Shown piece after piece: positions 26,115 through 54,965 of a DNA stretch of 64,000 nt. Each line of letters starts with the position of its first letter. Within the stretch, counting starts at the first letter, position 1. Below the pieces are notes generated by a model, which made no database searches, had not been told where the DNA came from, and saw only the letters and a program-made list of their open reading frames with translations. The translations under genes were made by a program, and so were the position numbers. Source of the stretch: Bacteroidia bacterium (GTDB lineage: Bacteria > Bacteroidota > Bacteroidia > Cytophagales > Cyclobacteriaceae); NCBI GenBank assembly GCA_031384515.1, contig JANNAQ010000013.1, positions 40,495 through 104,494 on the forward strand, read 5' to 3'.

Positions 26115-28454
26115 ATGGAAAAAAATATAGAAAAAATTGCCAATGAATTAAATCTCTCCACGCAACAAGTAGAGATTGTTATTGAAATGTTGGTAGAGGG
26201 AGCGACTATCCCTTTTATGGCGCGTTACCGAAAAGAAATGACTGGTAGCCTGGATGAAGTACAACTGGCGGCAATTCGCGATCGCCATGAACAGCTTATG
26301 GAGTTGGATAAACGCAAGGAGGCAATTCTTAAGTCGATTGAGAAGCAGGAAAGGTTAACACCTGCATTAGCAAAAGATATTGAGCAGGCTGAGACGATGG
26401 TGGCATTGGAGGACATCTACCTTCCCTACAAACCTAAACGCAAAACACGCGCCAGCATAGCCAAGGAAAAAGGGCTTGAGCCATTAGCACTAAGTTTATT
26501 TGAGCAAGGTAAATTGGAGGTGGATAAACTTGCGGCCACGTATATTAATACAGAGTTGGGTGTGGCTAACATACAAGAAGCATTGGAAGGAGCACGAGAT
26601 ATCATGGCAGAATGGATCAGTGAAAATCAGGAAGCACGGAAAAATATTCGCGAAATCTTCTGGCAAGACGGTATCATCGAAGCCTCTGTGATAAAATCAA
26701 AGGCAGAAACGGAAGAGGCTCAAAAGTTTAAGGATTATTTTGAGTGGAAAGAGCCGATCAAAAAAACCCCTTCACACCGATTGCTCGCCATGCGCAGAGC
26801 CGAGAAAGAAGGATTTATTTCTTTAGACATTGCCCCCACCGAAGCACTTGCTATACAAACTCTGGAAAAGCAATTTATAAAAACGTCATCGCCAGTAGGC
26901 GAACAAGTTGGTATGGCTATTAAAGATTCGTATAAACGATTGTTAAAACCTTCGCTCGAAAGCGAGGTTCGAATAGAATCCAAACAACAAGCCGATGTAG
27001 AAGCAATCAAAGTATTTTCTTCCAACCTTAAAGAATTGCTTCTGGCTTCTCCTCTGGGACAAAAGCGAGTGATGGCACTTGACCCCGGGTTCAGGTCGGG
27101 CACTAAATTAGTTGCGTTAGGTGAGCAAGGAGAATTGCTTTTCAATACAGTGATTTATCCATTAGAACCGCAGCGCGAAACAGATAAGTCATCGGCTATC
27201 GTGATGGGGTTGTGCGATCGATTTAAAATTGAGGCAATCGCCATTGGCAATGGAACAGCTAGTAGAGAGACTGAATCATTTGTTAAGTCGCTGGGTCTTC
27301 CAAAAGAAATTTTGATAGTGATGGTTAATGAAAGCGGAGCTTCCATTTATTCGGCCAGCGATGTTGCTCGTGAAGAGTTCCCAGATCATGACATCACGGT
27401 GCGAGGTGCTGTATCAATCGGAAGAAGATTGACTGACCCATTGGCTGAGTTGGTAAAGATTGATGCAAAGTCAATTGGTGTGGGTCAATACCAACATGAT
27501 GTAGATCAAGTTAAATTAAAAGCTGGGCTTGATGATGTGGTGATGAGTTGTGTCAACTCTGTTGGGGTAGAGGTAAATACTTCGAGTAGAGAATTACTTT
27601 CTTATGTATCCGGATTGGGGCCTCAATTAGCAAAGAGTATAGTTGAATATAGAAATCAAAATGGAGCCTTTAAAGACCGACATTCTTTGCATAATGTGCC
27701 TCGCTTGGGTGAAAAAGCGTTTGAACAGTGTGCCGGTTTTTTGCGCATTCGTGATTCAAAAAATCCGTTAGATGCTAGTGCCGTGCATCCCGAGCGTTAT
27801 GAGCTGGTCGAAAAATTTGCGAGTGACTTAGGATGCACAGTAAAAGATTTAATGACAAATGCCGAGGTGCGAAAGAAGCTTGACCTCAAAAATTATGTGA
27901 GCGACACCGTTGGACTGCCTACATTAACTGATATATTGTTAGAACTAGAAAAGCCAGGTCGTGATCCACGTGAAAAGTTTGAGGTATTTTCTTTTGAAGA
28001 AGGCATTCACGAAATAAAAGATTTGAAGGTGGGGATGATGTTACCTGGTATTGTTACCAACGTCACCAACTTCGGGGCGTTTGTAGATGTGGGTGTGCAT
28101 CAAGATGGTCTTGTGCACATTAGTCATTTGAGTGACCGGTTTATTAAAGACCCAAGCCAGGTTATTTCTGTTCAGCAAAAAGTAAAGGTTACTGTAGTAG
28201 AGGTTGATGTCGCGCGCAAGCGAATTGCGTTGTCGATGAAGAGTGATCCTTTTGGGAATGCGCCTGCGAAATCAAGTGAACAAAAAACTTCTTCGCAACA
28301 GTCGAAGCCAGGATCTAAGCGTTCGGATTCCAAACATCCGGGGTCTGTGTCCTCACAGACACCAAATAAGAAACACACTTCAAATGCTCCTCTGAAAAAA
28401 GAAGAGTCTATGGAAGATAAGCTGGCACAGTTGAGAGAGAAGTTTAAGAGATAA
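26115..28454 (+). CDS. tex: Tex family RNA-binding transcriptional accessory protein
   Basis: GATIPFMARYRKE, ALDPGFRSGTK (YqgF-like), HhH region, S1 domain GAFVDVGVHQDGLVHIS. Confidence 0.96.
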   Translation: MEKNIEKIANELNLSTQQVEIVIEMLVEGATIPFMARYRKEMTGSLDEVQLAAIRDRHEQLMELDKRKEAILKSIEKQERLTPALAKDIEQAETMVALEDIYLPYKPKRKTRASIAKEKGLEPLALSLFEQGKLEVDKLAATYINTELGVANIQEALEGARDIMAEWISENQEARKNIREIFWQDGIIEASVIKSKAETEEAQKFKDYFEWKEPIKKTPSHRLLAMRRAEKEGFISLDIAPTEALAIQTLEKQFIKTSSPVGEQVGMAIKDSYKRLLKPSLESEVRIESKQQADVEAIKVFSSNLKELLLASPLGQKRVMALDPGFRSGTKLVALGEQGELLFNTVIYPLEPQRETDKSSAIVMGLCDRFKIEAIAIGNGTASRETESFVKSLGLPKEILIVMVNESGASIYSASDVAREEFPDHDITVRGAVSIGRRLTDPLAELVKIDAKSIGVGQYQHDVDQVKLKAGLDDVVMSCVNSVGVEVNTSSRELLSYVSGLGPQLAKSIVEYRNQNGAFKDRHSLHNVPRLGEKAFEQCAGFLRIRDSKNPLDASAVHPERYELVEKFASDLGCTVKDLMTNAEVRKKLDLKNYVSDTVGLPTLTDILLELEKPGRDPREKFEVFSFEEGIHEIKDLKVGMMLPGIVTNVTNFGAFVDVGVHQDGLVHISHLSDRFIKDPSQVISVQQKVKVTVVEVDVARKRIALSMKSDPFGNAPAKSSEQKTSSQQSKPGSKRSDSKHPGSVSSQTPNKKHTSNAPLKKEESMEDKLAQLREKFKR
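28380..28454 (+). repeat. tex 3'-end direct repeat, copy 1 (in the intact gene)
   Basis: Encodes SNAPLKKEESMEDKLAQLREKFKR*; 64/75 identical to 38244-38318. Confidence 0.92.
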
Positions 28455-28465
28455 AGTGTCGTTTC

Positions 28466-29443
28466 TTATTTCTTTATAAAAATAAAATCTCCGCCTTCAT
28501 CGACTACATCCTGGATGACTCCAAATTGAGGAACAATGTGAGTATTATTGGAAATGGGCTCAAACATTCTGGAGAAGAGAAGACGCGATGACATAAATAC
28601 TTCCGGGTTATCTCCTAATTTCTTCAATAGGAATTCAACAAAAACACTTTTGTCTGGCACGGTGCTTAGGTTTCCACTCGTCATGGCCCGTCTACTTTTG
28701 TCTTTATACAATTCATTGAATTTCATGATCATACTTGACGCATCTGCCCCGCGGGTTTTAAAGATGCTGCCGCTAAAGCAGGCATCAGCAATGAGTAAGG
28801 TATGTTTGGATTTGATCGCGCCCAGATAATCCTTCAGTGTGCTATTCGGTATCCAGGTGCTTTTATCTTTTATGTTGGCATCGGAGGCTAGCCAATAGCC
28901 AAAGTCTTTTTGTTTATCCCACACACCGTGGCCAGCATAAAAAACCAATACATTATCACGTTCTGTTACTACTTCCGATAAATGCTCCAGGGCGTTAATG
29001 ACATCGCTGCGGGTAGGGTTAGCAAGGTATTTTATGCGCTCGTCATCAAACGTATAATTCTCTTTAAGTACTTGTCTAAGTCTTTCCGCATCTTTTACCG
29101 GTTGATCCAAATTAGGCAATTCGGTAGTGGCGTTTTTGTAGTGCGCCACTCCCATAATCAGCGCATAGTACCTTGGAAGGTTATCCGCTGTAATCCCCAA
29201 TGTCTGCAAGGTTACTACCGATCTCTCTTCTGCTCTTTTTTTCTCTTCTGCAATTCGCGTTTCCTCGGCAAGCCGTAATTCCTCGGCACTTCGGTTTTGT
29301 TCGTCAGCAATCCTCTTCTCCTCTGCTACTACTGAGGCACCTTTAAAATTAATGGCATTGCTTTTTACTCTTGTAGTTTGCGCGGTTGATACCAAGCTAC
29401 TAAAAAGGAGCAGTGTAAAAAAGATATTTTTTTTCATATCCAT
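28466..29443 (-). CDS. Secreted caspase-family (peptidase C14) protein
   Basis: Signal peptide, AEE-rich coiled coil, YALIMGV..Y, catalytic FYAGHG (His) and IADACFSG (Cys). Confidence 0.92.
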   Translation of the reverse strand: MDMKKNIFFTLLLFSSLVSTAQTTRVKSNAINFKGASVVAEEKRIADEQNRSAEELRLAEETRIAEEKKRAEERSVVTLQTLGITADNLPRYYALIMGVAHYKNATTELPNLDQPVKDAERLRQVLKENYTFDDERIKYLANPTRSDVINALEHLSEVVTERDNVLVFYAGHGVWDKQKDFGYWLASDANIKDKSTWIPNSTLKDYLGAIKSKHTLLIADACFSGSIFKTRGADASSMIMKFNELYKDKSRRAMTSGNLSTVPDKSVFVEFLLKKLGDNPEVFMSSRLLFSRMFEPISNNTHIVPQFGVIQDVVDEGGDFIFIKK

Positions 29444-29447
29444 TCTT

Positions 29448-32400
29448 TTAATTCAACACAATTCGATAGAAACTTCTGCGATCGGAATAGTGAAACCTTA
29501 AGAAATAAATGCCAGCGGCAGGGCGATCACCTGTAACGGTAAAGCCATTCCACCGCAATTCATGCGAACCTGAAACTAAATCACCGGTATAAACATCTGT
29601 TACTTTCTGACCCAATGAATTGATCAAGTCAATGCTCACCGGATAACCTTTTCCCCAACCTGGAAGAGAAACAGTAATTTTTGTTTCACCATGCGATGGA
29701 TTAGGTGAGACAGAAAGAATCTTGCCCTCCCCATTTGGCATTTCCTTGGAGAGGTACTCGGAGTTGCCAAAAATAATTTTGAATCTCCCCGGTGTTTTAA
29801 AAAAATAGGAGTTGATGGTTCGCATATTGATGGACGCCTTTTCATTCTCATCGATTAGAAATAATTCTTTTTCATTTCCAGTGAAATGACTATTTCCCCA
29901 GTTGATAGATGCAAATTCTTTTTTGTTATTTGACTCGACAATAAATTTCCATGAATAATTTTCTGAAGTTGGGACAACATCTTTTGAAAACGGATTTCCG
30001 TTGATGACATTCTCATGGTTTAAGTCGATGTATTCTATAAATCGAGGAAGGCTAACATCGTCATATTTATCAAACCCGATTTTAGCATCTGATTGCATTC
30101 CAATTCCTGAGATAGAATTAACCAATTCACCTTGCTTTAAATTCAAGGCTAACTCCCAACTAGCAGATTCAAATGGATTGGATGGCGCAGTTTTACTTTC
30201 TGATATTCTTCCGCTTTTACTCCTGGAAGGAGGAAAAATAAGAATAGAGGCTTGCTCTGCGAAGACGAAGCCGCCTTCCATTTTTTTCAGGACTGTGGAA
30301 TTATCATAGGGTGCGCCCGTAAATATTTTTAGGGGTCTTGTGCCAATGAAAGAATTGGCATTCTGAATGTCGCTCCAGTCGATATTGAAATTGTATGGAT
30401 TGCCGATTTGATTCCAGCCTTGTTTAAGTTGTATGCTGAAAGGACTCGAAACGGATTTGCCGGGACCACCTGTTAATGCTTTGCCCGGATTATTCTTTAT
30501 CAGCAACCAATATCCCCAACCTGTTTCGATCGGATCTGATGCTACTAATTCCTTTGTTGAGTTTCCATCCCAATGCGACAATCTCCAATTAAATTGATCG
30601 AACTGTCCCAATTCGTCAAAAACGTTTCCGGCATTTTTATTATCAAGTTGATATGGAAAAGAAATGATCCTGTAGTTGGATTGGCCTGAGCCAAAATTAT
30701 CATAGGGTAACGGTGGTCCATCTGAGGGTTGTTTCACCGCTACAGGGTAGTGGGGAGTTTGCTCAGCAAGACCTAAACCATTTAAAGCTGTTATCCAATA
30801 CTCAACACCAATCTCACCGATAGCAGATGCCGGTATGGTAGCAACCCAATTGTTGCCTGTCAACGTCATTTCCAAAATTACTTCAGTGCTGGTGGTCAAT
30901 CGGTTTTTATAAAACAAAGAAGCATTAGCCACTCCTGATTCCGGATCAGTTATTTGCGCAGTGATCGCCAGAGACACGTCCTTGTCAACAATTGCAATTG
31001 GCGAATGAACAATTACAGGCTTGGTTGAGTCAATGGATTTGTTGCCTGTAAGAGGCGAAGCAGTACGATAGTTGATGGTAACGCCACTGCCATTGTAAGC
31101 ATACACTTGATAGAAATAGTTTGTGCCTGCAGTCAATCCTGTTTCATTGAAGGTTACGGCTGTGCCTACATAAGCAATTGTTCCATCGCCTATTGGTGAT
31201 GCAACTGCGTAGCCAGTCGCGTCCACTGGAAGGGATGTGGCTACTGATCCAGCTTTGCGAACTACTAGATATCCCGATGGTGTTCCGGTCGCTGCGGTGA
31301 AAGAAACGGTAAACGTAGTTGACCCTACATTGGAGAATACAAGTGCCGTTGGTTGAGAAGCAGGCTCCGTTGCTAACGTACTCTTACTTCCTTCAAGAGG
31401 TGAGGCAGTAAGATAGTTGAGGGTTGATCCGCTTCCATTGTAGGAAAAGACATCATAGAAATAAGTTGTTGAGGCGGTCAGCCCTGTTTCATTGAATGTT
31501 AAAGCGCTACCCACATACGCCACGGTACTTGCGCCAATTGCATTGCCAGTTGTGTATTCTGTTCCATCAAGCGGTACATCAGTAGGAGAAGAAACAGTTT
31601 TGCGTAGAACAATGTAACCGGCAGGCGAACCTAAAGCAGCTGTCCATGATAAGGTCATTGAAGTTGCCTGAACGTTGGAGAATAAAAGAGAAGTTGGTTG
31701 TGCGGTTGGTTCGGACGCAAGAGCTGGACTGGTGGTCTGATTGTTTTCAAGCGGACTAGTTGTTAGGTAATTATATGTTCCCGTTATTCCGTTGTAGGAG
31801 AAGATATCGTAGAAATATGTTGTTGAAGCAGTAAGTCCTGTTTCATTAAAAGTTAAAGCACTACCCACATACGCTACAGTGCTTGTGCCGATCGTATTGG
31901 TTGCCGAATATTCTGTTCCATCCAAAGGCACATCAGTTGGCGAAGAAACAGTTTTTCGAATAACGACATAACCAGCACGAGAGCCAGTCGCTGCTGTCCA
32001 ACTCAAGGTCATTGAAGTTGGTTGAACGCTGGAAAACGTAAGTGCTGTAGGTTGGGCAGTTGGTTCTGTTGCAAGTGTAGGACTGGTGGTCTGGTTATTT
32101 TCAAGCGGGCTAGTTGTTAAATAATTATACGTACCCGTTGTTCCGTTGTAGGAGAAGACATCATAAAAGTAATTTGTAGAAGGGATAAGCCCTGTTTCAA
32201 TGAAAGTTATTCCGCCAGCTGCATACGCTACGGTGCTGGTGCCAATCAGGTTGGTTGCGGAATATTCTGTTCCATCAACTGGCACATCTGTGGGAGAAGA
32301 AACAGTCTTGCGGAGAACAAGGTAACCTGCTGGAGAGCCAGTAGCGGCAATCCATGTTAACGTTATTGAAGTTGCCTGAACACTAGAAAAGCTGAGTGCA

Positions 32401-35400
32401 GTTGGTTGTGCGGTTGGTGGAGCAGCTAAAGTTGTTTGGGTTCCTACGAGCGGAGCAAGAGTTAAGTAATTATATGTACCCGTTGTTCCGTTGTAGGAAA
32501 ATACCTTGTAGAAATAATTTGTTGACGGTGCAAGACCTGTTTCATTAAAAGTTAACGCACTACCTGCATACGCCACGGTACTGGTGCCGATCGTATTGCC
32601 TGTTATGTATGCCGTTGCATCCACCGGTATATCGGTTAGCGAAGAAACAGTATTGCGAAGAACAATGTAACCGGCTGGAGAACTTGAAGCGGCTGCCCAG
32701 GTTAAGTTCATCGTAGTTGACTGAACGTTTGTAAAAATTAAAGAAGTTGGTTGTGCTGTTGGTTCAGTGGCAAGCGTTGTTTGATTATTTTCAAGTGGAC
32801 TTGTTGTTAGGTAATTATAAGTTCCCGTTGTTCCGTTGTACGAGAATACATCATAGAAGTAAGCAGTTGATGCAGTAAGTCCTGTTTCATTGAATGTTAA
32901 GGTACTGCCTACATATGCTACAGTGCTTGTGCCAATAGAGCCTGTTGCGGTATAAGATATTTCATCTACTGGAACGTCAGTAGGAGAAGACCCTGTTTTA
33001 CGAAGAACAAGATAGCCAGTAGGTGAACCTGTAGCTGCTGTCCAGTTTAAGGTCATTGAAGTTGGTTGAATGCTAGAGAATAAAAGGGAAGTAGGTTGCG
33101 TTGTCGGTTCCGTTGCAAGAGCAGAGCTCGTTGTTTGATTATTTTCAAGTGGACTAGTTGTTAAGTAATTGTATGTTCCGGTAGTTCCATTATAAGAGAA
33201 TACATCGTAGAAATAAGTAGTTGAAGCAGTAAGCCCAGTTTCATTAAACGTTAGGGCACTACCTGCATACGCTACGGTGCTGGTGCCAATCGTATTGGAT
33301 GCGGTGTATGCAGTTCCATCCACGGGCACATCGGTAGGAGATGAGCCTACTTTTCGAAGAACAATATAACCAACTGGAGAACCTGTCGCTGCTGTCCATG
33401 TTAAAGTCATTGAGTTCAATTGAACGCTGGAGAATAAAAGAGAAGTTGGTTGAGCCGTTGGCTCAGGTGCAAGGGTTGGGCTCGTTGTCTGATTGTTTTC
33501 GAGCGGAGTGGTAATTAAATAATTATACGTCCCCGTAGTTCCATTGTAAGAGAAGACATCATAAAAGTAATTTGTAGAAGGGATAAGCCCCGTTTCAATG
33601 AAAGTTATCCCGCTAGCTGCATACGCTACAGTGCTGGTGCCGATCAGGTTGGTTGCGGAATATTCTGTTCCATCCACGGGCACATCTGTGGGAGAAGAAA
33701 CAGTTTTGCGAAGTACGATATAACCAGCAGGAGAACCTGTTGCTGCTGTCCATGTTAAGGTCATTGAAGTAGATTGAATACTGGAGAAAGAAAGTGAAGT
33801 GGGTTGTGCAGTTGGTTCAGGGGCTAAAGTTGTAAGATTATTTACGAGCGGAACAGTTGTTAGATAATTGAACGTTCCTGTTGTTCCGTTGAAGGAGAAT
33901 ACATTGTAGAAATAATTCGTTGAAGCGGTAAGTCCAGTTTCATTGAATGTTAAAGCACTACCTGCATACGCCACTGTGCTTGTTCCTATGGTGTTGCCTA
34001 TTGTGTACACCGTTCCATCTACCGGCACATCTGTAGGCGAAGAAACAGTATTGCGAAGAACAATGTAACCTACCGGAGAGCCAGAAGCTGCTGCCCAGGT
34101 TACAGTCATAGTAGATGCCTGAATAGTAGTAAAAGTTAAAGAAGTGGGTTGCGCAGTTGGTTCAGAGGCTAAAGTTGTTTGACTTCCTTCCAGTGGCGTT
34201 GTGGTTAAATAATTATAAGTTCCGGTTGTTCCGTTGTAAGAGAATACATCGTAGAAATAAGTTGTTGAAGCGGTAAGCCCCGTTTCATTTAATGTTAAAG
34301 CATTGCCTGCATACGCTACGGTGCTGGTTCCAATTGCGTTGCCTATTGTGTATGCCGTTCCATCTATGGGTATCTCCGTTGGAGAAGAAATTGTTTTGCG
34401 AAGTACGATATAACCAGTTGGAGAACCTATTGCTGCTGTCCATGATAAGGTCATCGTAGTTGGCTGAACGCTGGAAAACGTAAGTGCTGTAGGTTGAGCA
34501 GTTGGTTCTGTTGCAAGGGTAGGACTGGTTGTCTGATTATTTTCGAGCGGACTAGTTGTTAAGTAATTATACGTTCCCGTAGTTCCATTATAAGAGAAGA
34601 TGTCATAGAAATAATTTGTTGAAGCGGTAAGACTTGTTTCATTAAAAGTTAATGCACTTCCTACATACGCTACGGTGCTGGTTCCAATTGTGTTGCCTAT
34701 TGTATATGCCGTTCCATCTATGGGCACATCCGTTGGAGAAGAAATTATTTTGCGAAGTACGATATAACCAGTTGGAGAACCTGTCGCTGCTGTCCATGAT
34801 AAGGTCAGCGAAGTTGGCTGAACGCTGGAAAACGTAAGTGCTGTAGGTTGAGCAGTTGGTTCTGAGATAATAGTAGTATTTCTAAAAACAGAAATCGAAT
34901 TATTTCCATTTCCCACTACTAAATCAGGCTTTCCATCACCGTCAATATCAGCAATGTTGACATCGTAGGAGGATTGCGTTTTTGGGAAATCAATTTTTGC
35001 GGCAAAAGAACTTGTATTGATCACACCGGATGAGCTGGTGTTTTTGTACACAGAGACGGTGTTGGTGCTTTCGCAAACAACTGCAATCTCCAGCTTCCCA
35101 TCACCATCAAGGTCACCCAATGCAACTCCTAAAGGTCTTGTGCCTGTCGTGAAATCAATATTGGCAGCAAAGGAACCCGTTGTGATTATCCCCTGGGTGG
35201 AAATGTTTCTGAATACAGAGACTTTAGCCCCTTGCAGAAGTACGACAGCAAGGTCAGGCTTGCCATCACCATCCAGATCACCAATGCCTACTCGGTTAGT
35301 CGGGCCACTGCCAGTAGTAAGATTAACTGTTGAAGCAAAGGAACCAGCCGAGATGGAACCTAAAGTAGAGGTGTTTTTCAATATAGAAATGTTATTGCTG

Positions 35401-37358
35401 TTGCCATTGGCAACCACCAATTCTGGTTTACCGTCAGCATCCAAATCTGCGATGTTAACATTTAATGGATTTGTTCCTACAGTAAAATCAATTTTGGGAG
35501 CAAATGAACTTGTGGTGATCGCTCCCGTGGTGTAGATATTTTGAAAAACCGAAACCGTAGTACCATCATTATTGGCAACCACCAAATCAGCCTTCCCGTC
35601 ACCATCCAAATCACCTATGATAGCACCCGATGCTCTTGTCGTGGTGGCCAAGTCTACCCTGGATCCAAAAGAACCTGAAGTGATTGATCCCGCAGTACTC
35701 GTATTTTGGAATATCGATACCGAACTGCTCGTGTAATTCGTTACTACCATATCCAGTTTCCCGTCACCGTCAAGGTCAGCAAGCGCCATACCTGAAGGTC
35801 TTGTGCCCGGGGTAAAGTCAACCTTTGTAGCAAAGGAGCTACCGGTGATTGCTCCCGCACTACTCGTATTTCTCAACACTGAAACCGATGAGCCCGTATA
35901 ATTTGATACTGCCATGTCCGACTTACCATCCCCATCGAGGTCGCCAACTCCTACAAAATAAGATTCATTCTCTGCTGTAGTGAAGTCCACCTTGGTGGCA
36001 AAAGAGCTCGCATCGATAATTCCGCTGCTTGGAAATGTTACGATAAACGGTTTGCTCGAATAAGCCGTAAGTCCACCTGTTGTTATTGTAATAGGTTGGT
36101 AGGTTGCACCAGTTGGCACAGTCACTGTAAGTTGTGTTGCTGATGCATTCGTTACAGTTGCTTTGGTAGCACCAAAGTAAATGATGTTGTTTGTTGGGGA
36201 TGTACTGAAGTTTGTGCCGGTGATTATAACGGTTGTGCCTACTGGGCCACTTGTAGGGGTGAAACTGGTTATTGCAGGTGGAAGTGTGTAAATATCTACA
36301 ACATTTGAAATTGAACTTCCTGAAGCATCACTTCCACCACCAAAAAATGCCATTGTCCCAAGAGCAGTCGCGCTTAAATAACCTCGTGCTTCGGAAAGCG
36401 TGGCTGTAGTCCAGTTATTAGTACTGTTGTCATAAATATCAACAACATTGGAATTACTTCCATTGTTGCCTCCTGCAAAAAAAACTTTATTCCCTACTGA
36501 ACTAGAACTTAGACCCTCTCTTGCCTGAGAGAGAGTTGCGGTTGACCATATATTGGTGTTATTGTCATATACATCTACCACATTGGAACTAACGCCATTG
36601 TTACCACCCGCAAAAAAAACTTTAGTCCCAACGGAAGTGGCAGTTAAATACCACCTTGCTTGCGAGAGAGTGGCGGTTGTCCAGGTATTGTTACTGTTGT
36701 CATAGATATCCACAACATTGGAAGGAACTGAAGCACTAGTACTACCTCCAGCAAAAAAAACTTTAGTCCCAACTGAGGTTGCGCTCGAATAGTACCTCGC
36801 TTGAGAGAGTGTAGCCGTTGCCCAGGTATTAGAGCTGTTATCATAAATATCCACAACATTGGAAGCCGCTAAACCATTGTGCCCGCCTGCAAAAAATACT
36901 TTGGTGCCTACTGAAGTCGCAACTAAAATACTCCGTGCCTCAGAAAGATTTGCCGTTGTCCATGTACTTGTACTATTGTCGAATATGTCAACTACATTTG
37001 AATTGGTACCATTATCCCCACCTGCAAAAAAAACTTTAGTTCCAATGGAGGCAGCACTTAATGAGCACCGTGCCTGAGACAATGTTGCTGTAGTCCAAGT
37101 GTTAGTACTATTATCATAAATATCAATAACATTGGAACAATTAGGTACATTATTATATCCTCCTGCAAAAAAGACTTTAGTTCCAACCGATGCTGCGCTT
37201 AGTTGAGTACGCGCCTGAGAAAGAGTAGCCGTAGTCCATTGAGCCTGTGCTACAGTTGAAATAAAAAGCCCTGTTAGGGTGATCAATAGGACAATGAGCA
37301 ATCTTGATTTTTTTATTGCGAGTCTGATATAACAATATTTTATAAAGTCATCCTTCAT
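29448..37358 (-). CDS. 2636-aa T9SS-type surface protein: 7 kelch-like repeats, IPT/TIG, FG-GAP repeats, 11 FN3-like repeats, C-terminal sorting domain
   Basis: 7x W.TA.LS.AR...VFFAGG; PAITSFTPTSGPVGT; multiple GDLDGDGK.D; 11x EPTAQPT..F...W..A; C-terminal SVSPNPS...LINSLGQKV...WNG....GIYFL. Confidence 0.92.
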   Translation of the reverse strand: MKDDFIKYCYIRLAIKKSRLLIVLLITLTGLFISTVAQAQWTTATLSQARTQLSAASVGTKVFFAGGYNNVPNCSNVIDIYDNSTNTWTTATLSQARCSLSAASIGTKVFFAGGDNGTNSNVVDIFDNSTSTWTTANLSEARSILVATSVGTKVFFAGGHNGLAASNVVDIYDNSSNTWATATLSQARYYSSATSVGTKVFFAGGSTSASVPSNVVDIYDNSNNTWTTATLSQARWYLTATSVGTKVFFAGGNNGVSSNVVDVYDNNTNIWSTATLSQAREGLSSSSVGNKVFFAGGNNGSNSNVVDIYDNSTNNWTTATLSEARGYLSATALGTMAFFGGGSDASGSSISNVVDIYTLPPAITSFTPTSGPVGTTVIITGTNFSTSPTNNIIYFGATKATVTNASATQLTVTVPTGATYQPITITTGGLTAYSSKPFIVTFPSSGIIDASSFATKVDFTTAENESYFVGVGDLDGDGKSDMAVSNYTGSSVSVLRNTSSAGAITGSSFATKVDFTPGTRPSGMALADLDGDGKLDMVVTNYTSSSVSIFQNTSTAGSITSGSFGSRVDLATTTRASGAIIGDLDGDGKADLVVANNDGTTVSVFQNIYTTGAITTSSFAPKIDFTVGTNPLNVNIADLDADGKPELVVANGNSNNISILKNTSTLGSISAGSFASTVNLTTGSGPTNRVGIGDLDGDGKPDLAVVLLQGAKVSVFRNISTQGIITTGSFAANIDFTTGTRPLGVALGDLDGDGKLEIAVVCESTNTVSVYKNTSSSGVINTSSFAAKIDFPKTQSSYDVNIADIDGDGKPDLVVGNGNNSISVFRNTTIISEPTAQPTALTFSSVQPTSLTLSWTAATGSPTGYIVLRKIISSPTDVPIDGTAYTIGNTIGTSTVAYVGSALTFNETSLTASTNYFYDIFSYNGTTGTYNYLTTSPLENNQTTSPTLATEPTAQPTALTFSSVQPTTMTLSWTAAIGSPTGYIVLRKTISSPTEIPIDGTAYTIGNAIGTSTVAYAGNALTLNETGLTASTTYFYDVFSYNGTTGTYNYLTTTPLEGSQTTLASEPTAQPTSLTFTTIQASTMTVTWAAASGSPVGYIVLRNTVSSPTDVPVDGTVYTIGNTIGTSTVAYAGSALTFNETGLTASTNYFYNVFSFNGTTGTFNYLTTVPLVNNLTTLAPEPTAQPTSLSFSSIQSTSMTLTWTAATGSPAGYIVLRKTVSSPTDVPVDGTEYSATNLIGTSTVAYAASGITFIETGLIPSTNYFYDVFSYNGTTGTYNYLITTPLENNQTTSPTLAPEPTAQPTSLLFSSVQLNSMTLTWTAATGSPVGYIVLRKVGSSPTDVPVDGTAYTASNTIGTSTVAYAGSALTFNETGLTASTTYFYDVFSYNGTTGTYNYLTTSPLENNQTTSSALATEPTTQPTSLLFSSIQPTSMTLNWTAATGSPTGYLVLRKTGSSPTDVPVDEISYTATGSIGTSTVAYVGSTLTFNETGLTASTAYFYDVFSYNGTTGTYNYLTTSPLENNQTTLATEPTAQPTSLIFTNVQSTTMNLTWAAASSSPAGYIVLRNTVSSLTDIPVDATAYITGNTIGTSTVAYAGSALTFNETGLAPSTNYFYKVFSYNGTTGTYNYLTLAPLVGTQTTLAAPPTAQPTALSFSSVQATSITLTWIAATGSPAGYLVLRKTVSSPTDVPVDGTEYSATNLIGTSTVAYAAGGITFIETGLIPSTNYFYDVFSYNGTTGTYNYLTTSPLENNQTTSPTLATEPTAQPTALTFSSVQPTSMTLSWTAATGSRAGYVVIRKTVSSPTDVPLDGTEYSATNTIGTSTVAYVGSALTFNETGLTASTTYFYDIFSYNGITGTYNYLTTSPLENNQTTSPALASEPTAQPTSLLFSNVQATSMTLSWTAALGSPAGYIVLRKTVSSPTDVPLDGTEYTTGNAIGASTVAYVGSALTFNETGLTASTTYFYDVFSYNGSGSTLNYLTASPLEGSKSTLATEPASQPTALVFSNVGSTTFTVSFTAATGTPSGYLVVRKAGSVATSLPVDATGYAVASPIGDGTIAYVGTAVTFNETGLTAGTNYFYQVYAYNGSGVTINYRTASPLTGNKSIDSTKPVIVHSPIAIVDKDVSLAITAQITDPESGVANASLFYKNRLTTSTEVILEMTLTGNNWVATIPASAIGEIGVEYWITALNGLGLAEQTPHYPVAVKQPSDGPPLPYDNFGSGQSNYRIISFPYQLDNKNAGNVFDELGQFDQFNWRLSHWDGNSTKELVASDPIETGWGYWLLIKNNPGKALTGGPGKSVSSPFSIQLKQGWNQIGNPYNFNIDWSDIQNANSFIGTRPLKIFTGAPYDNSTVLKKMEGGFVFAEQASILIFPPSRSKSGRISESKTAPSNPFESASWELALNLKQGELVNSISGIGMQSDAKIGFDKYDDVSLPRFIEYIDLNHENVINGNPFSKDVVPTSENYSWKFIVESNNKKEFASINWGNSHFTGNEKELFLIDENEKASINMRTINSYFFKTPGRFKIIFGNSEYLSKEMPNGEGKILSVSPNPSHGETKITVSLPGWGKGYPVSIDLINSLGQKVTDVYTGDLVSGSHELRWNGFTVTGDRPAAGIYFLRFHYSDRRSFYRIVLN

Positions 37359-37398
37359 TTATTCGGTGTAAAGAGCAAGCCTTTTCATAAACTTCATT

Positions 37399-38106
37399 TT
37401 AATTTCCCGTTGGTGGTTCCGGTGCATTAGGCAATCCTTCCTTTGAGTCGGGCAACAATAAATAAACAACAACTCCTACTATAACCACCGCAGGAGAAAT
37501 CAACCAGGCCAAAGCAACTTTTCTTTTTACTTGTATGGGTATTGTTACTTTATCATCCTTTGATGTCAGTTGTATGTGATAGCCTTTGCCCAAGGTTAAG
37601 TTGGGGTCGGGCTGTAGATTTAAAGTTCCGGTTTTGTTGAGTATCGTTTTTTTCCAAAGCACTTTCTTGTCAGCAGAAATAAATTCGAAATGAATGGAAT
37701 CCTGTGGCCGCCCGCCACTCCATTCAATTGTATTTTCTTTCCCTCTGCGTAAAGATTTTTGTGGAGTTACAAATCTCAAGTGAAAAATCACCTCGGCCTC
37801 CAGTTCAAATGCCAGGTCTCCGCTGAAGTTGTCCAGCTCATGGCCATACAGCCATTCAATTTGCTTGTTTGCACCAGGTGTTACTTTAGCAACAGCACCA
37901 GAAATATTTGCCAGTGGCTTTGAAAAAGCATCATGCGAACTGAAGACTTTTAGTTCTACCCAGGAATCGGTTGGTGCCGTTTATAAATCATATTCAAGAA
38001 TGATTTTATCAGCTTCAATCCTTGTCCTTACATTTTCAATGACTTGCGAAAAGGCAGATTGACACCAAAGGAGGGTAAAACAAACCTGAAGGAACTTTGA
38101 ATACAT
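37399..38106 (-). pseudogene. Exported protein with a C-terminal TM anchor, interrupted by an in-frame TAA at codon 42
   Basis: ATG at 38106 gives signal peptide MYSKFLQVCFTLLWCQSAFS-QVIENVR...; TAA at 37981-37983; the same frame continues open into track ORF 37399..37791. Confidence 0.8.
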
Positions 38107-38243
38107 GTATCGAAGTCTTGCGTAAAGAGAAAATACACCATGTTAAATCTACACAATATAAATTGGTTACAAAAAACGGGGGAGATTATTGCAAGGAGTA
38201 AGGCTTATGCTTTGAATAAGGGGCTTTAATAAAGAAGCCCTCC

Positions 38244-38318
38244 TCAAATGCTCCCGTAAAAAAAGAGGAATCTATAGAGGATAAACTGGCACAATTGAGA
38301 GAGAAGTTTAAGAAGTAA
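38244..38318 (+). repeat. tex 3'-end direct repeat, copy 2 (orphan tail)
   Basis: Encodes SNAPVKKEESIEDKLAQLREKFKK* with no upstream gene; weak homology extends to about 38232. Confidence 0.92.
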
Positions 38319-38352
38319 CAGATACAGTTTGCAAAACCGTATCTTTCTTTCT

Positions 38353-39318
38353 ATGAAGGGAATACTATTGTTAGCATCGATACTATTTGCTTATTCAGCA
38401 TCCGCACAGCGCATTAGTAATACGGCACTATATCGCAATGTAAGTTCAAACCAATATTTTCGTATTCATTACGAAAATGATTATTTCTCCACCACCGATA
38501 TTTATTACACCCAAGGCATTAATCTCGAGTATGTACACCCTGCCATCGGAAACTTTTTTACTTCAAAGCTATTAATTGGCTCGTCTTCCAAAGAAGTTAA
38601 ATTTGGAATTGCTCTGGAGCATGAAGGATACACCCCCACCAGTATTTCACATCCTGAAGTTCTTGTAGGCGACAGACCCTTTGCTGCTTGTTTGTTTCTT
38701 AAAACCTTCTCTATAATAAATGATTCAGTACGCAGAGTCCGTATTTCTTCTTCTCTTAGCGCAGGCGTAATCGGCCCAAGCGCATATGGCAAAGAAATGC
38801 AGGAAACTATCCATAGATGGATCAACGATACGCAACCGCTTGGATGGGAAAATCAGATTAACAACGATCTTATCCTCAATTATGAAGTTGAATATGTAGC
38901 TGAACTTTTCGCCTCTCCCGATTATTTTTCTCTCTCGGCCCAGGTTGGTGCCAATGTAGGCACGCTCAATGCAAAAGCCTTTACAGGAGTAATCATGATG
39001 GCTGGTATTTTTGATAATCCATTTATCAATTTTTCCAGGCAAAAAAGATTGAAACAAGTGTATGTGTATGCAGAACCCTTGCTGAACATTGTTGCCTACG
39101 ATGCCACCTTGCAAGGTGGTATGTTCAATAAAAATAGCCCTTACACAATACCTCGCGAAGATATTACGCGTTTGGTTTTTCAGGCAAATGTTGGAATTGT
39201 TGTTCGGATCAGGGCATTGCAGTTGGAATATTTCCAATCCTATCTCACCAAAGAATTTAGTACCGGTGGCACACATCTTTGGGGCGGCATTCGAATCGGA
39301 TGGTACCTACGTAAGTGA
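38353..39318 (+). CDS. Lipid A deacylase LpxR-family (DUF2219) outer membrane protein, copy 1
   Basis: HYENDYF..TD.YYTQG, YTPT.I......DRPFA, GWENQI, C-terminal WGGIRIGW; ATG at 38353 gives a signal peptide. Confidence 0.82.
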   Translation: MKGILLLASILFAYSASAQRISNTALYRNVSSNQYFRIHYENDYFSTTDIYYTQGINLEYVHPAIGNFFTSKLLIGSSSKEVKFGIALEHEGYTPTSISHPEVLVGDRPFAACLFLKTFSIINDSVRRVRISSSLSAGVIGPSAYGKEMQETIHRWINDTQPLGWENQINNDLILNYEVEYVAELFASPDYFSLSAQVGANVGTLNAKAFTGVIMMAGIFDNPFINFSRQKRLKQVYVYAEPLLNIVAYDATLQGGMFNKNSPYTIPREDITRLVFQANVGIVVRIRALQLEYFQSYLTKEFSTGGTHLWGGIRIGWYLRK

Positions 39319-39343: not shown

Positions 39344-39395
39344 CTACTCCAAAACTGGAAAATTATCCGTAGGGCTTTCGCGCAGATGATATTCC
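39344..39395 (-). repeat. Orphan 3'-end copy C of the gene at 40534-41058
   Basis: Encodes EYHLRESPTDNFPVLE*; 43/52 identical to 40534-40585. Confidence 0.9.
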
Positions 39396-39412
39396 CCAGT
39401 TTCCGCGTTACC

Positions 39413-39817
39413 TCACTTCGTCCAGTTTGCAATGTCAAGTCCTTTAATCCGCTTGAAGTGGTCTGAGTTATTTGTAACAAGTTGAAATTCACTCGTCATG
39501 GCTATACCTGCTATCAAAGTATCCGTATGCCCTATTTCTGTTCCTTTTCTTCATAGGTCAGCTTGAATTATGGCTGCCGCTTTTGCCATACGCAATGTCA
39601 ACGGAACTACTTTGTTTAATTCTACAAATTCTTCAAACCTTGTTAATTGTTTTCTTGCGTCCTTGTATAAAAGTCCGTTGAGAATTTCATAATAAGTGAT
39701 GATGCTTAAACTGATGAAGCCATGCTCCTTCAGGTGTTCGTCAACTTTTGCAATAACCTTCGGGTTGCCTCGTAAAAATTCCGAGAGAACATCGGTGTCA
39801 AGCATTGAGGGTTTCAT
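39413..39817 (-). pseudogene. vapC: VapC/PIN toxin with an in-frame TGA at codon 89
   Basis: MLDTDVLS, SIITYYEILNG; after TGA (39551-53) the same frame continues RKGTEIGHTDTLIAGIA...LVTNNSDHFKRIKGLDIANW. Confidence 0.88.
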
Positions 39818-40059
39818 AAGTCAATGCTGCGGTCAAAGAGCGTTGTCCTTGATTTTTTGGGTTGATTAAGAAAATCCGCATAGTCCTTGTTGCTCATGTC
39901 GCTAAAAGCTCCGCCAAATGAAAGAATTTTCTTCCGCAATCCATCTGAGGCAGATTGTTTGGTAGGAGGTGTCAGAGAATGAACAAACTGATAGAGTTCT
40001 TCTAACCGGTTAACCGGAACATCTTTCATCTCTTTTAAAATGGAATTTAATGTCAACAT
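39814..40059 (-). CDS. Putative antitoxin
   Basis: 81-aa ORF whose stop overlaps the PIN gene start (ATGA); own -7 element at 40077-40084. Confidence 0.7.
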   Translation of the reverse strand: MLTLNSILKEMKDVPVNRLEELYQFVHSLTPPTKQSASDGLRKKILSFGGAFSDMSNKDYADFLNQPKKSRTTLFDRSIDL

Positions 40060-40247
40060 TGTCGTCTAAATTTTGTCAAAGGTAGCGGAAAAATAGCGTT
40101 AATCAGTAGCACTAAGTTTAGTGAGTATGCGACAGATGAATTTACTAAATGATAAAAATTTTGTCATAAAGTAATACTATTTGATTGGCGTTGGATCATG
40201 ATTCAACCATGAATACAATCTGCTAAATTGGATATGAGAAGAACATT

Positions 40248-40289
40248 CTCTACTCCAGCACCGGAAAATTATCGGTAGGTCTTTCGCGA
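40248..40289 (-). repeat. Orphan 3'-end copy A of the gene at 40534-41058
   Basis: Encodes RERPTDNFPVLE*; 40/42 identical to 40532-40573. Confidence 0.92.
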
Positions 40290-40475
40290 GGGTGATGCAA
40301 AGACCGCCTTTAGATCATTTTGGGTTAACCCCGGGTAACTCTCAAAAATCATCTTTTCAGTCCAGCCATTAGCCAATAGATCCAAAATCAATTCAACTGA
40401 AATTCTTGTTCCTTTTATTGTCGGTTTGCCCAATAAAACTTCTTTATCTGACATAATATGTTCTTTCCAATTCAT
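40269..40475 (-). pseudogene. DUF433 antitoxin-like gene, 3'-truncated by repeat copy A
   Basis: LLGKPTIKGTRISVELILDLLANGW......YPGL...DLKAV; the last codons run out of frame into the duplicated tail; no DUF5615 partner. Confidence 0.8.
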
Positions 40476-40533
40476 ACATCAAATATATTAGTTTTCAGGC
40501 AGAAGCAGAATCCAGCTATTGAGCAATCTTGCT

Positions 40534-41058
40534 CTACTCCAGCACCGGAAAATTATCAGCAGGTCTTTCGCGAAGATGGTACTCCATAATGATGCGTGCG
40601 CAGGTATTCCATCGCAGAACGGGATCATTATTACCGTCTCTGTTGATAGCATCAGCATTCTCATAAAACTCCATGGCTTCGCGATACCATTCGTAGGCAT
40701 CAAAATCAGAACCGGGGGTTGTTGATTTCAATGCTGTTGCGCCCTGACGTTCATGAACAATTCCGGTATAATAAATTCTGGCGTATTCATCTTTCAAACT
40801 CTTGGAAATGCTTAATGCTTGATTGGCTGTCTTCGAGGATGATTCGCCAAATTGATCCGTTAAGGCAAGCAACAAAATAACGGAGGCGCGCTGATTGTCA
40901 GGCGTAATCAACAGAACATCCAGGCAGATGCTCTCCGCCAACCGCGGCTGATTGAGCAAGCGATAATGTTCCGCTTTACCGAGTGAAGATTCAATGCCTT
41001 CTTTTGAAAGCGGCTTCAATTCAAACACATTTGCTTCGGAGGTTGTTGCTGTTCTCAT
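40534..41058 (-). CDS. Hypothetical TPR-like helical protein downstream of sdhB ('gene X')
   Basis: 174 aa; KAEHYRLLNQP..AESICLDVL...DNQ.A...LLLALTDQF, YYTGIVHER, VLRWNTCAR; 31 bp after sdhB. Confidence 0.8.
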   Translation of the reverse strand: MRTATTSEANVFELKPLSKEGIESSLGKAEHYRLLNQPRLAESICLDVLLITPDNQRASVILLLALTDQFGESSSKTANQALSISKSLKDEYARIYYTGIVHERQGATALKSTTPGSDFDAYEWYREAMEFYENADAINRDGNNDPVLRWNTCARIIMEYHLRERPADNFPVLE

Positions 41059-41089: not shown

Positions 41090-41863
41090 TTATTTAAATA
41101 TACGAAAAAGCTTCGTGCCTACATACCTTAGAGCATTTCGGCACGCAGGCATTAGCGGATCATAGAATTTATCGGCTACCCGCTCTTTCAATGGAATAAT
41201 GGCATTGTCGGTGATAGTAATATTTTCGGGGCACACAGTAGTGCAGCATTTTGTGATGTTACAAAGGCCGATGCCGCCTTCGGTTTTCAAATCTTGTCTG
41301 CGATCCTCCACATCTAAGGGATGCATTTCAAGTGCCGCAGTATACACCATGTGCCGCGGACCAGCAAATTGTTCGTGCATATTATGCTCGCGCAAAACGT
41401 GACAAACATCCTGACAAAGAAAACATTCAATGCATTTTCTAAACTCTTGTACACGATCAATGTCAACCTGATCCATTCGCCAGGTGCCGTCTGGGGCATC
41501 GGGTGGACGAGGTTTGAATTTTTTTATTTTTTTCTTGATACGATAATTAATAGAAACGTCCGTTACTAAATCCCGGATTACCGGAAACGCTTTCATCGGT
41601 TGAAGTGTGATCGGCTTGTCCTTCGGCATGTCGCTCATACGGGTCATGCACATAAGTTTAGGATGTCCGTTTATTTCTGCAGAGCACGAGCCACACTTTC
41701 CGGCTTTACAATTCCACCGAACAGCTAAATCATTGGCGGACTCTGCCTGTATCTGATGTACGGCATCGAGCACAACCATACCTTCGGTGATCTCAGTTTT
41801 ATATTCCTGAAATTCTCCACCGCTGGAATTTGTGCGCCATATTTTGAACGTTACGTTTGGCAT
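41090..41863 (-). CDS. sdhB: Succinate dehydrogenase/fumarate reductase iron-sulfur subunit
   Basis: WNCKAGKCGSC, CIECFLCQDVC, CNITKCCTTVCP. Confidence 0.93.
   Translation of the reverse strand: MPNVTFKIWRTNSSGGEFQEYKTEITEGMVVLDAVHQIQAESANDLAVRWNCKAGKCGSCSAEINGHPKLMCMTRMSDMPKDKPITLQPMKAFPVIRDLVTDVSINYRIKKKIKKFKPRPPDAPDGTWRMDQVDIDRVQEFRKCIECFLCQDVCHVLREHNMHEQFAGPRHMVYTAALEMHPLDVEDRRQDLKTEGGIGLCNITKCCTTVCPENITITDNAIIPLKERVADKFYDPLMPACRNALRYVGTKLFRIFK
41116..41151. repeat. 36-bp REP-like palindrome inside the sdhB 3' end
   Basis: TGCCTACATACC-12 nt-GGCACGCAGGCA; 12-bp stem with 3 G.U pairs on the mRNA strand. Confidence 0.7.
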
Positions 41864-44663: not shown

Positions 44664-45644
44664 ATGGGCATTGAACTTGTGAAAAAAGTAATTCTTCTCG
44701 CTTCCATGGGGATAGCATCTTCTACCTTAGGGCAACGCATCAACACGACTGCGTTGTATCGCAACGTCAGCGCGCAAAAGTATTTTCGGCTTCACTATGA
44801 GAACGATTATTTCTCAACCACCGACATCTATTATACACAAGGCATTAATCTTGAGTACGTACATCCAACGATTGGAAATTTTTTTACGTCCAGATTATTG
44901 GTGCATTCGGATTCGAAGGATGTTAAATTTGGCATTTCCCTTGAACACGAAGCGTATACACCTACCAGCATTGCTCACTCCGAAATTCTAGTGGGAGACC
45001 GGCCTTTCGCGGCAGTAGTATTTTTCAATACCTTTTCGGTTGTAAGTGATGCTATTCGCAGAGAGCGTGTTTCGTCTTCTCTTAGTGCAGGTGCAATCGG
45101 ACCTGTCGCGGGCGGTAAAGAAATACAGGAGACAATTCATCGCTGGATCAATGACACTCAACCGCAGGGGTGGCAGAACCAGATCCGTCTCGATGTTATC
45201 CTGAACTATCAGATAGACTACGAGCGGGAACTTTTAATGTATCCAAATCATTTTTTACTTTCTGGAAAAGCGGGTGCCCGTGTAGGCACCTTGAATACGA
45301 AAGCGTATGCAGGGGTTATTTTAATGGCTGGTTATTTTGACGATCCGTTTAAAGACTTTTCAAAACAAGAGAGAAAATTGCAAGCTTATCTGTATGCAGA
45401 GCCATTATTTCAAATTATTGGGTATGATGCAACATTACAGGGCGGCTTAGTTCATCGGGCCAGTCCCTATACTATATCAGTGAGTGACATCAGCCGATGG
45501 GTTTTGCAGGGAAACGTTGGCCTGGTTGTTAAAATTAATAGGGTGCAAGTGGAGTATTTTCAGTCCTACCTTACAAAAGAATTTGAAACAGGAGGGTCTC
45601 ATCTGTGGGGTGGAATTCGAATAGGCTGGTATTTAGACAGGTAA
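44664..45644 (+). CDS. LpxR-family (DUF2219) outer membrane protein, copy 2
   Basis: Collinear paralog of 38353-39318, roughly two-thirds identical by eye. Confidence 0.82.
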   Translation: MGIELVKKVILLASMGIASSTLGQRINTTALYRNVSAQKYFRLHYENDYFSTTDIYYTQGINLEYVHPTIGNFFTSRLLVHSDSKDVKFGISLEHEAYTPTSIAHSEILVGDRPFAAVVFFNTFSVVSDAIRRERVSSSLSAGAIGPVAGGKEIQETIHRWINDTQPQGWQNQIRLDVILNYQIDYERELLMYPNHFLLSGKAGARVGTLNTKAYAGVILMAGYFDDPFKDFSKQERKLQAYLYAEPLFQIIGYDATLQGGLVHRASPYTISVSDISRWVLQGNVGLVVKINRVQVEYFQSYLTKEFETGGSHLWGGIRIGWYLDR

Positions 45645-54749: not shown

Positions 54750-54800
54750 CCCTTGTTCATTTGACAAGTTTGGTTTTTATGAGCACAAAATAGATTGAAC

Positions 54801-54905
54801 GTCTTTGCGAGCACCTGCGTGGGATTTGTGGGTTGTGCGAAGCAATCTGCTAATTTTAGCGATCGCTTCGTCCCTCTCGCTTCCTCCGCTGGTACTCGCG
54901 ATGAC
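54801..54905. repeat. Degenerate nested palindromic element (GTC...GAC termini)
   Basis: Outer GTCTTTGCGAG/CTCGCGATGAC; inner CGAAGCAATCTGCTAA/TTAGCGATCGCTTCG. Confidence 0.7.
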
Positions 54906-54965
54906 GTCAAATTTTTAGTTTTGCGTAACATCAGTTATTTAGCTAGGTTGGAATAAATATTCGAT

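Follow-up and report, generated by a model that had tools for sequence, protein, structure and literature searches.

Orphan copies of a gene's 3' end and toxin-antitoxin cassettes beside a Cyclobacteriaceae sdh block: a possible polarised stack of displaced gene ends

We analysed a 64,000-nucleotide (nt) stretch of the genome of a Bacteroidia bacterium of the family Cyclobacteriaceae (GCA_031384515.1, contig JANNAQ010000013.1, positions 40,495 to 104,494 of the forward strand; hereafter the window, with positions counted from its first letter) and found three copies of the 3' end of one gene, here called X, set around two small cassettes of toxin-antitoxin type. The copies differ from one another as alleles do, the number of cassettes varies among relatives, the same footprint recurs at other genes, and no integrase lies on the contig. 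We tentatively read the locus as an insertion hotspot, bounded by the convergent core genes X and tex, in which displaced gene ends have built up as a polarised stack. The account of its origin that we favour, with a confidence somewhat short of even, is homology-anchored import of a gene end together with cargo, with the old end displaced; the recombination route is one that we infer. Gene X and the array downstream of it, with lengths in nt or amino acids (aa), are as follows.

40534 to 41058, minus strand: gene X, a 174-aa open reading frame (ORF) for an uncharacterised helical protein, lying fourth after sdhA and sdhB; it anchors the array.
40534 to 40585, minus strand: tail B, the live 3' end of X, TAG stop included.
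40298 to 40533, minus strand: cassette 1, a 58-nt leader and a DUF433 antitoxin gene cut after codon 61 (Pfam DUF433, 2.2e-19).
40250 to 40297, minus strand: tail A, an orphan copy of the last ~48 nt of X, with 40/42 core identity to tail B.
40132 to 40249, minus strand: a 118-nt spacer after tail A, which directly follows the live X stop in L105/L106, G147 and G152 (94-95% identity).
39814 to 40059, minus strand: the antitoxin gene of cassette 2, 81 aa, frame intact, overlapping the VapC start by 4 nt.
39413 to 39817, minus strand: the VapC/PIN toxin gene of cassette 2, with an in-frame TGA at 39551-39553.
39344 to 39398, minus strand: tail C, an orphan copy of the last ~55 nt of X, with 43/52 identity to tail B.

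The three copies and their identities had been described in a sequence-only reading of this DNA, and both were reproduced here. A repeat finder returned a single three-copy family in the window (39344-39395, 40250-40301 and 40534-40585), and BLAST of the genome against itself aligned A with B over 42 nt at 95.2% (40248-40289 against 40532-40573) and C with B over 52 nt at 82.7%. A degenerate 39-nt pattern of the tail matched 3 sites in the window against 0 in 100 shuffles, and a search of the whole 4.45-Mb genome for further copies found none beyond these three. Translated in the X frame, tail C reads EYHLRESPTDNFPVLE and a stop, against EYHLRERPADNFPVLE and a stop, keeping the X C-terminus with two residue changes; tail A reads HPRERPTDNFPVLE and a stop, again the X C-terminus with two changes. 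Tail C differs from tail B in 8 codons over 52 nt, 6 of them synonymous, the same count as first reported, and extending the in-frame comparison to 54 nt brings in one more non-synonymous codon, for totals of 6 synonymous and 3 non-synonymous changes. Gene X itself matched no Pfam or NCBIfam family. Its 7617 homologues are mostly from Cytophagales/Bacteroidota, with a patchy distribution among Cytophagales-type Bacteroidota, and sdhB precedes X in relatives wherever upstream sequence is present.

The codon pattern of the copies is far from random. Simulated random substitutions gave about 20% synonymous codon changes in our codon-position test, against 67% for B and C (6 synonymous, 3 non-synonymous; P=0.0002), 60% for a similar pair of tex ends described below (6 and 4; P=0.0008), and 100% both for the tail pair of the related locus L019 (3 and 0) and for a pair at lipA (P below 0.001); the tail pair of locus L162 had 5 synonymous and 4 non-synonymous changes. 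This synonymous excess suggests that the copies diverged as working gene ends in different lineages. Divergence does grow with distance from the intact gene, as the sequence-only reading noted, but age accounts for this no more than do differences between the alleles from which the ends came.

In most cases (tails A and C of X, tex, lipA and L195), the duplicated segment ends within 2 nt of the stop codon, and the stop codons themselves often differ; the duplications of L162, C86 and C92 run past the stop. The proximal boundary varies, lying at 48, 55 and 258 nt at X, at ~78 and ~48 nt at tex, and at 39-258 nt overall. At X, tail A and the second tail of L019 share their left boundary, at 48 nt; that of tail C is at ~55 nt, and that of L162 at 222+36 nt. 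Tail C ends 25 nt from the stop of a convergent LpxR gene, a distance that matches the live X end in L111 and L114. The tails have no hairpin or attC-like fold (z-scores of -0.3, -1.7 and -0.7 against shuffles). With no hairpin, no evident fixed breakpoint and no reuse in the 176 other genomes of the genus, the idea that the tail is a conserved recombination site is not supported.

The stacked pair of toxin-antitoxin cassettes proposed earlier holds as to gene calls (DUF433 and PIN/VapC) and fails as to intactness. In cassette 1, the ORF at 40269-40475 leaves DUF433 homology after codon 61 and enters tail A in another frame; the truncation falls precisely on the tail boundary. The cassette lacks a DUF5615 partner toxin gene and, with 61 DUF433 codons left, is not a two-gene DUF433-DUF5615 module. 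The alignment of the window with L019 is unbroken, at 90%, between the X start and DUF433 codon 61, the cassette 1 region matching L019:5907-6709 at ~90%; cassette 1 is therefore the L019 cassette after a ~440-nt deletion that took out the toxin gene. In cassette 2, the 81-aa antitoxin matched no Pfam or NCBIfam family. The toxin gene matched PIN/VapC models (Pfam 2.5e-12; NCBIfam VapC 3.4e-22, below the NCBIfam cut-off), and the PIN domain covers residues 5-126 only if the TGA is read through. Relatives have an Arg/Lys codon at that position, and the window VapC gene is a probable pseudogene, leaving a VapBC module with an interrupted toxin. Two-gene modules homologous to cassette 2 occur elsewhere in the genus at ~79% nt identity, and the two cassettes are unrelated to each other in sequence. 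Both thus appear to be decaying, with both toxins predicted to be inactive, one by gene deletion and the other by a nonsense stop.

We compared 153 related X loci with downstream sequence (8-kb flanks) and, separately, 177 genomes of the genus, our own included. Cassette number does vary among relatives: there are none in L022, L111, L114 and most others, one in L019 and L162, and two in the window. Gene X and tex are only 83 nt apart at the empty site of L022, and in L111 and L114 the LpxR gene is convergent on X, as it is at tail C in the window. L105/L106, in which X is 97% identical, have a live X stop followed by the 118-nt sequence found after tail A and then by an ATPase gene in place of VapBC, a state without the X-proximal DUF433 cassette. 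The tails thus bound discrete units of insertion or deletion, as had been proposed. L019, a metagenome contig in which X is also 97% identical, holds intact DUF433 (78 aa) and DUF5615 (117 aa) genes between two tails, in the order X, 58-nt leader, DUF433, DUF5615, 46-nt spacer, second 41-48-nt X tail and convergent tex. In L162, where X is 63% identical, a ParE/RelE-like pair lies between two 258-nt copies (95% identity) that comprise 222 nt of X and 36 nt past its stop. These two are the only ones of the 153 loci with a second tail within 8 kb of X, and both hold toxin-antitoxin genes only inside. The X tail is carried by 8 of the 177 genomes, and our own alone has more than one copy. In addition, two contigs from the Joint Genome Institute, L023 (299 kb) and L024 (118 kb), both stop 176 nt past the X stop codon, which suggests strain heterogeneity at the hotspot that breaks assemblies.

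The far side of the locus carries the same footprint at tex, with these features.

26115 to 28454, plus strand: tex, 779 aa, the convergent core neighbour of X in L019, L021 and L022.
28455 to 38240, no strand assigned: tex-side cargo of ~9.8 kb, comprising a caspase-like gene, a gene for a 2636-aa surface protein and a 130-aa ORF.
38241 to 38318, plus strand: an orphan tex end, a copy of the last ~78 nt of tex at about 85% identity, 10 nt before LpxR copy 1.
38329 to 39318, plus strand: LpxR copy 1, convergent on the X array and the native X neighbour in L111 and L114 (Pfam LpxR, 3.1e-62).

The ancestral pair of convergent tex and X genes has therefore been opened from both sides, with orphan ends present for both genes. 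In L021, a toxin-antitoxin-like pair (67 aa and 92 aa) lies between copies of the tex end (~48 nt; 6608-6655 and 7291-7336), not of the X end.

A genome-wide scan for direct repeats with one copy ending a long ORF found further cases. At lipA, an 85-nt repeat surrounds a ParE-type pair, all 10 of 10 differences over 84 in-frame nt being synonymous and the stop codons different. A 69-nt repeat at a SnoaL-like gene surrounds a DUF4143 ATPase (3 synonymous and 0 non-synonymous codons), a 62-nt repeat at a histidine-kinase gene surrounds Bro-N and DinB genes (6 and 1), and a 113-nt repeat at a gene for a 410-aa protein surrounds a tetratricopeptide repeat protein and a DUF4143 ATPase (6 and 5). 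The repeat pair on contig C37 is a weaker case (P=0.08). One candidate, the pair at 65127/67231 on contig C1, was dropped because it consists of two paralogous genes with no orphan end. Among relatives, L195 (G011:C23) has an inverted DUF5615-DUF433 pair where a 273-aa PNP-like gene ends, together with an orphan tail of 39 nt; the tail copies lie at 1351-1389 and 2016-2053, and the two ORFs between them have 2 and 24 nt of flank. These flanks are not conserved, as those in L019 are 58 and 46 nt. Recurrence at tex, lipA, other genes and L195 indicates that the footprint is not specific to X, to one cassette or to one orientation.

Homology-anchored import would start from incoming foreign DNA made up of the 3' part of X, with a complete end and stop codon, and then cargo. 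On the left side, ordinary homologous recombination would take place inside X. On the right side, the first event at a site would be an illegitimate joint within the resident X end, and once a cassette carries an orphan tail, homologous recombination could run between the orphan tail of the donor and the live tail of the recipient. Such a double crossover would add one cassette and one tail beside X and push the resident end downstream as an orphan, with X staying intact and the newest cassette always adjoining it. A double crossover at X and tail would thus give polarity without an integrase, no dedicated recombinase being required, and recombination between tails could also delete cassettes. 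The integron- or CRISPR-like ordering (clustered regularly interspaced short palindromic repeats) that had been proposed for this array is reasonable as regards polarity; the comparison is an analogy and does not extend to the machinery.

Several observations lead us to favour this import over its alternatives. Gene X is mosaic with respect to L105: nt 1-218 hold only 4 mismatches, whereas nt 219-525 hold 30 (Fisher test 2e-4, from a breakpoint scan, uncorrected); the two genes have 93.6% nt identity over their length and ~98% over the first 218 nt. Past tail A, the 118-nt spacer returns to the L105 type (6/118 mismatches), and the block from mid-X through cassette 1 is evenly ~90% identical to L019. 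Such a pattern resembles what an imported block would leave if it had crossed over once inside X and once at the tail. Other genes on the L105 contig are merely 78-82% identical to our genome, so X, which is far closer, seems to have been exchanged between fairly distant lineages. Genes around X in relatives are 80-94% identical in patches, a sequence pattern that points to frequent recombination. The DUF433 cassette, its tail boundary at 48 nt in both cases, is followed by tex in L019 and by the L105-type spacer in the window, which makes two downstream contexts. Import is also supported by the allele-like tails, by ends that mostly fall at stop codons while the proximal boundaries vary, by the lack of a tyrosine recombinase on the window contig or between tail pairs, and by the recurrence of the footprint at other genes.

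Other points weigh against import. No donor genome was identified, and the L019 DUF433 gene and the start of the L105 X tail have in common only the 5-nt ACCTG, a weak hint of microhomology that was seen by eye. Homologous recombination is inefficient on a 48-nt arm. The mosaic test is uncorrected, and L105 is only ~80% identical elsewhere, which leaves the recipient lineage uncertain. Ours is a metagenome-assembled genome. A synonymous bias would also follow if, subsequent to an in-place event, another allele took the place of the live gene. Two further features are explained more naturally by a site-specific crossover: the truncation of cassette 1 ends exactly at a tail boundary, and just ~7 nt separate the boundary of tail A from that of tail C.

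These last two features are better accounted for by the main rival than by import. Under it, which we consider rather unlikely, the islets are decayed site-specific integrative elements stacked in tandem, the X 3' end being the attachment site and attP including a second version of that end. Tandem accretion and then the loss of integrase and transfer genes would have left islets like cis-mobilisable elements (CIMEs) that keep addictive toxin-antitoxin genes, and a recombinase encoded elsewhere might still move them. Direct repeats of a target-gene end with the gene restored are the classic footprint of such elements, and they are what we found at X. Tail A and the second L019 tail share a boundary from which that of tail C is only ~7 nt off, the deletion in cassette 1 ends there as at a recombination-prone point, and the cassette is present or absent in relatives as a precise unit. 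Allele-like tails would be expected here too if attP came from another host.

A scan with PF00589 found five tyrosine recombinase genes in the genome (contigs C1, C53, C60, C73 and C93), which could act in trans. The same scan placed none on the window contig, C35, and none within any tail pair, even where the two copies are as much as 150 kb apart, in keeping with the earlier statement that the array has no integrase. No serine recombinase was found in the genome (PF00239), nor any IntI above cut-off (TIGR02249), the best match being on contig C53, and no integrase was apparent within 8 kb downstream of X in the 153 related loci, where ORF lists were inspected by eye and without a hidden Markov model scan. 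Integrative elements are thus faced with the lack of an integrase on the contig or in any of the ~8 tail-flanked islets of the genome. They are also at odds with the rarity of the second tail (only L019 and L162 of the 153 loci, both with toxin-antitoxin genes only, and more than one copy in 1/177 genomes), with duplication lengths at X that differ widely (48, 55 and 258 nt), and with cassette ends that are not conserved between L195 and L019. Moreover, the many target genes would need many different integrases.

We regard as improbable a RecA-dependent route of the Campbell type, in which cargo and one tail are excised as a circle by tail-tail recombination and re-integrate at the live X tail by a single crossover. 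A single crossover duplicates exactly the shared segment, whatever its length (48-258 nt), and the segment may pass the stop, as in L162, C86 and C92; no recombinase is needed, and empty and filled sites both exist. Such a circle explains neither the mosaic that reaches ~300 nt upstream of the tail inside X nor the origin of the first circle to carry a tail.

An assembly artefact, in which contigs of co-existing strains were chained through shared tail sequence, is very improbable. The genome is a metagenome-assembled genome in 99 contigs, L023 and L024 break just after X, and the DUF433 gene is abruptly cut at a tail, all of which would suit such an error. Against it, each orphan tail covers just 48-55 nt between stretches of unique sequence, so that normal k-mer sizes need spanning reads; the same architecture is present in independent assemblies from other samples (L019, L020, L021, L162 and L195), and a near-complete 4-contig genome (G073, L209) also has toxin-antitoxin genes flanked by direct repeats. 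Least probable of all is that the tails were made in place, by staggered-cut target-site duplication or by one tandem duplication and deletions followed by neutral decay: the inserts are flanked by direct repeats and some toxin-antitoxin modules of relatives have 33-49-nt intergenic ones (L205 and L209), but we rejected this origin on the codon-position test, since the copies differ like alleles with a strong synonymous bias, on ends that coincide with stop codons, which random staggered cuts would not be expected to give, and on the varied lengths (39-258 nt), and the two unrelated cassettes have no transposase and no conserved or inverted ends.

By analogy, the closest known process to homology-anchored import seems to be gene-end displacement by incoming DNA, as at Rhs, contact-dependent inhibition (CDI) and type VI secretion system (T6SS) loci and in elements that insert in gene 3' ends. 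C-terminal displacement at Rhs and CDI loci and orphan immunity arrays of the Vibrio cholerae T6SS have been described (Jackson et al. 2009, BMC Genomics 10:584; Kirchberger et al. 2017, PMC5361080), and an illegitimate right-hand joint has been proposed for Rhs and T6SS orphan arrays (PMC5361080). There, homology to a conserved upstream gene anchors the exchange, a new 3' end and cargo arrive on the incoming DNA, and old 3' ends with their cargo are pushed downstream into a polarised orphan array. Gene X likewise has ordered orphan 3' ends downstream of an intact gene, each with its own cargo and with allele-like divergence. The two differ in that the Rhs and T6SS systems displace a variable toxic tip and diversify the toxin, whereas the end displaced here is that of a conserved, functionally equivalent housekeeping-operon gene. 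The cargo here is also unrelated to the anchor (toxin-antitoxin pairs, ATPases and a 9.8-kb surface-protein operon), and there are many anchor genes.

Some prophages and integrative and conjugative elements (ICEs) that insert in the 3' ends of protein genes carry a replacement end, such as e14 and phage 21 in icd of Escherichia coli and ICESt1/ICESt3 in fda of Streptococcus thermophilus, and the ICESt1/ICESt3 family includes integrase-less CIME derivatives and tandem accretion at fda. They share with X a duplicated gene end whose differences are mostly silent, a gene that stays intact, tandem stacking at a single site, and att repeats around remnants that lack an integrase. Unlike in those elements, no integrase was found here in or near the islets or relatives, repeat length is not fixed per target gene, and cassettes are as small as 0.3-0.9 kb. 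Tycheposons of Prochlorococcus, as reportedly described by Hackl et al. (2023, Cell), and accreted tRNA-gene islands similarly have cargo modules separated by partial 3' ends of the target gene, some without a recombinase, but they target tRNA genes and are defined by tyrosine recombinases, neither of which is seen at the X array.

Integrons, and CALINs (clusters of attC sites lacking integron integrases), which are cassette arrays exempt from the IntI requirement, share with the X array small promoter-poor cassettes that are often toxin-antitoxin pairs, in a polarised stack beside one fixed point. However, the X array has no IntI, and its repeats are in-frame coding gene ends rather than folded attC sites. 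CRISPR arrays also grow by polarised addition beside a fixed leader-like element, with older units more diverged. The X array differs in having no cas genes, in repeats that are 75-95% identical coding gene ends, allele-like and not copied from one another, and in units that are genes of 0.3-10 kb (0.28-0.9 kb for the cassettes at X) instead of ~30-40-nt spacers. A search of the literature for toxin-antitoxin cassettes bracketed by partly duplicated genes returned nothing directly matching. What sets the present case apart is end displacement at conserved housekeeping genes, with cargo of toxin-antitoxin or defence type and without an integrase.

Many bacterial hotspots of horizontal gene gain have no integrase or transposase, and the route by which DNA enters them is debated. 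Orphan gene ends provide physical footprints of such entry, recording the position of one joint, a foreign source (through allele-like differences) and the order of events, and their recurrence in one genome and several relatives makes the route open to comparative and experimental study. It is conceivable, if doubtful, that Cytophagales gain accessory and defence genes without an integrase in this way, with the displaced core-gene 3' end travelling with its cargo as a portable homology arm. Were that so, cassettes would hop between species at the same core gene, land beside it and build polarised arrays, and orphan ends would record the order and sources of past insertions genome-wide. For annotation, short in-frame copies of gene ends beside genes of toxin-antitoxin or defence type are more than pseudogene noise, and metagenome assemblies can be broken by them.

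Other features of the locus and genome were observed along the way. The first gene of the tex-side cargo (28466-29443), which adjoins the gene for the 2636-aa surface protein, matches an EACC1-associated caspase model (NCBIfam 1.1e-20, below cut-off). A second LpxR gene lies at ~44664-45644, upstream of sdhC, so that two paralogues flank the sdh-X block. LpxR copy 1 is ~79% identical in nt to the LpxR gene beside X in L111 and L114, and ~69% identical to the one upstream of the sdh operon in L022, which is the counterpart of copy 2.

Arrays of another kind occur in the same genome. On contig C26 (~79233-87018), at least nine copies of a 60-140-nt repeat lie 0.5-1.5 kb apart, each separating one small ORF, mostly on the minus strand and including a ParE/RelE-like pair; this resembles an attC-type (integron or CALIN) cassette array. 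In the relatives L202 and L204, similar attC-like arrays contain homologues of the window VapBC module. The best match to the integron integrase, which was sub-threshold and in two pieces (104 and 91 bits), was a 379-aa tyrosine recombinase on contig C53, about 8 kb from three copies of a ~135-nt repeat, and this region (C53, 10453-11250 and 18870-20545) may be a degenerate integron.

Upstream of X, 36 nt at the 3' end of sdhB (window 41115-41150) are missing from L019, L021 and L022, the alignments skipping exactly that stretch. Between sdhB and X, the same three relatives carry a ~190-nt element (L019:5719-5913, L021:5779-5952 and L022:4694-4867) that the window does not have there. Copies at 71-75% identity are present at ~54786-54941 of the window and at C11:84493-84687 of the same genome, and the element may be a small dispersed repeat resembling a miniature inverted-repeat transposable element.

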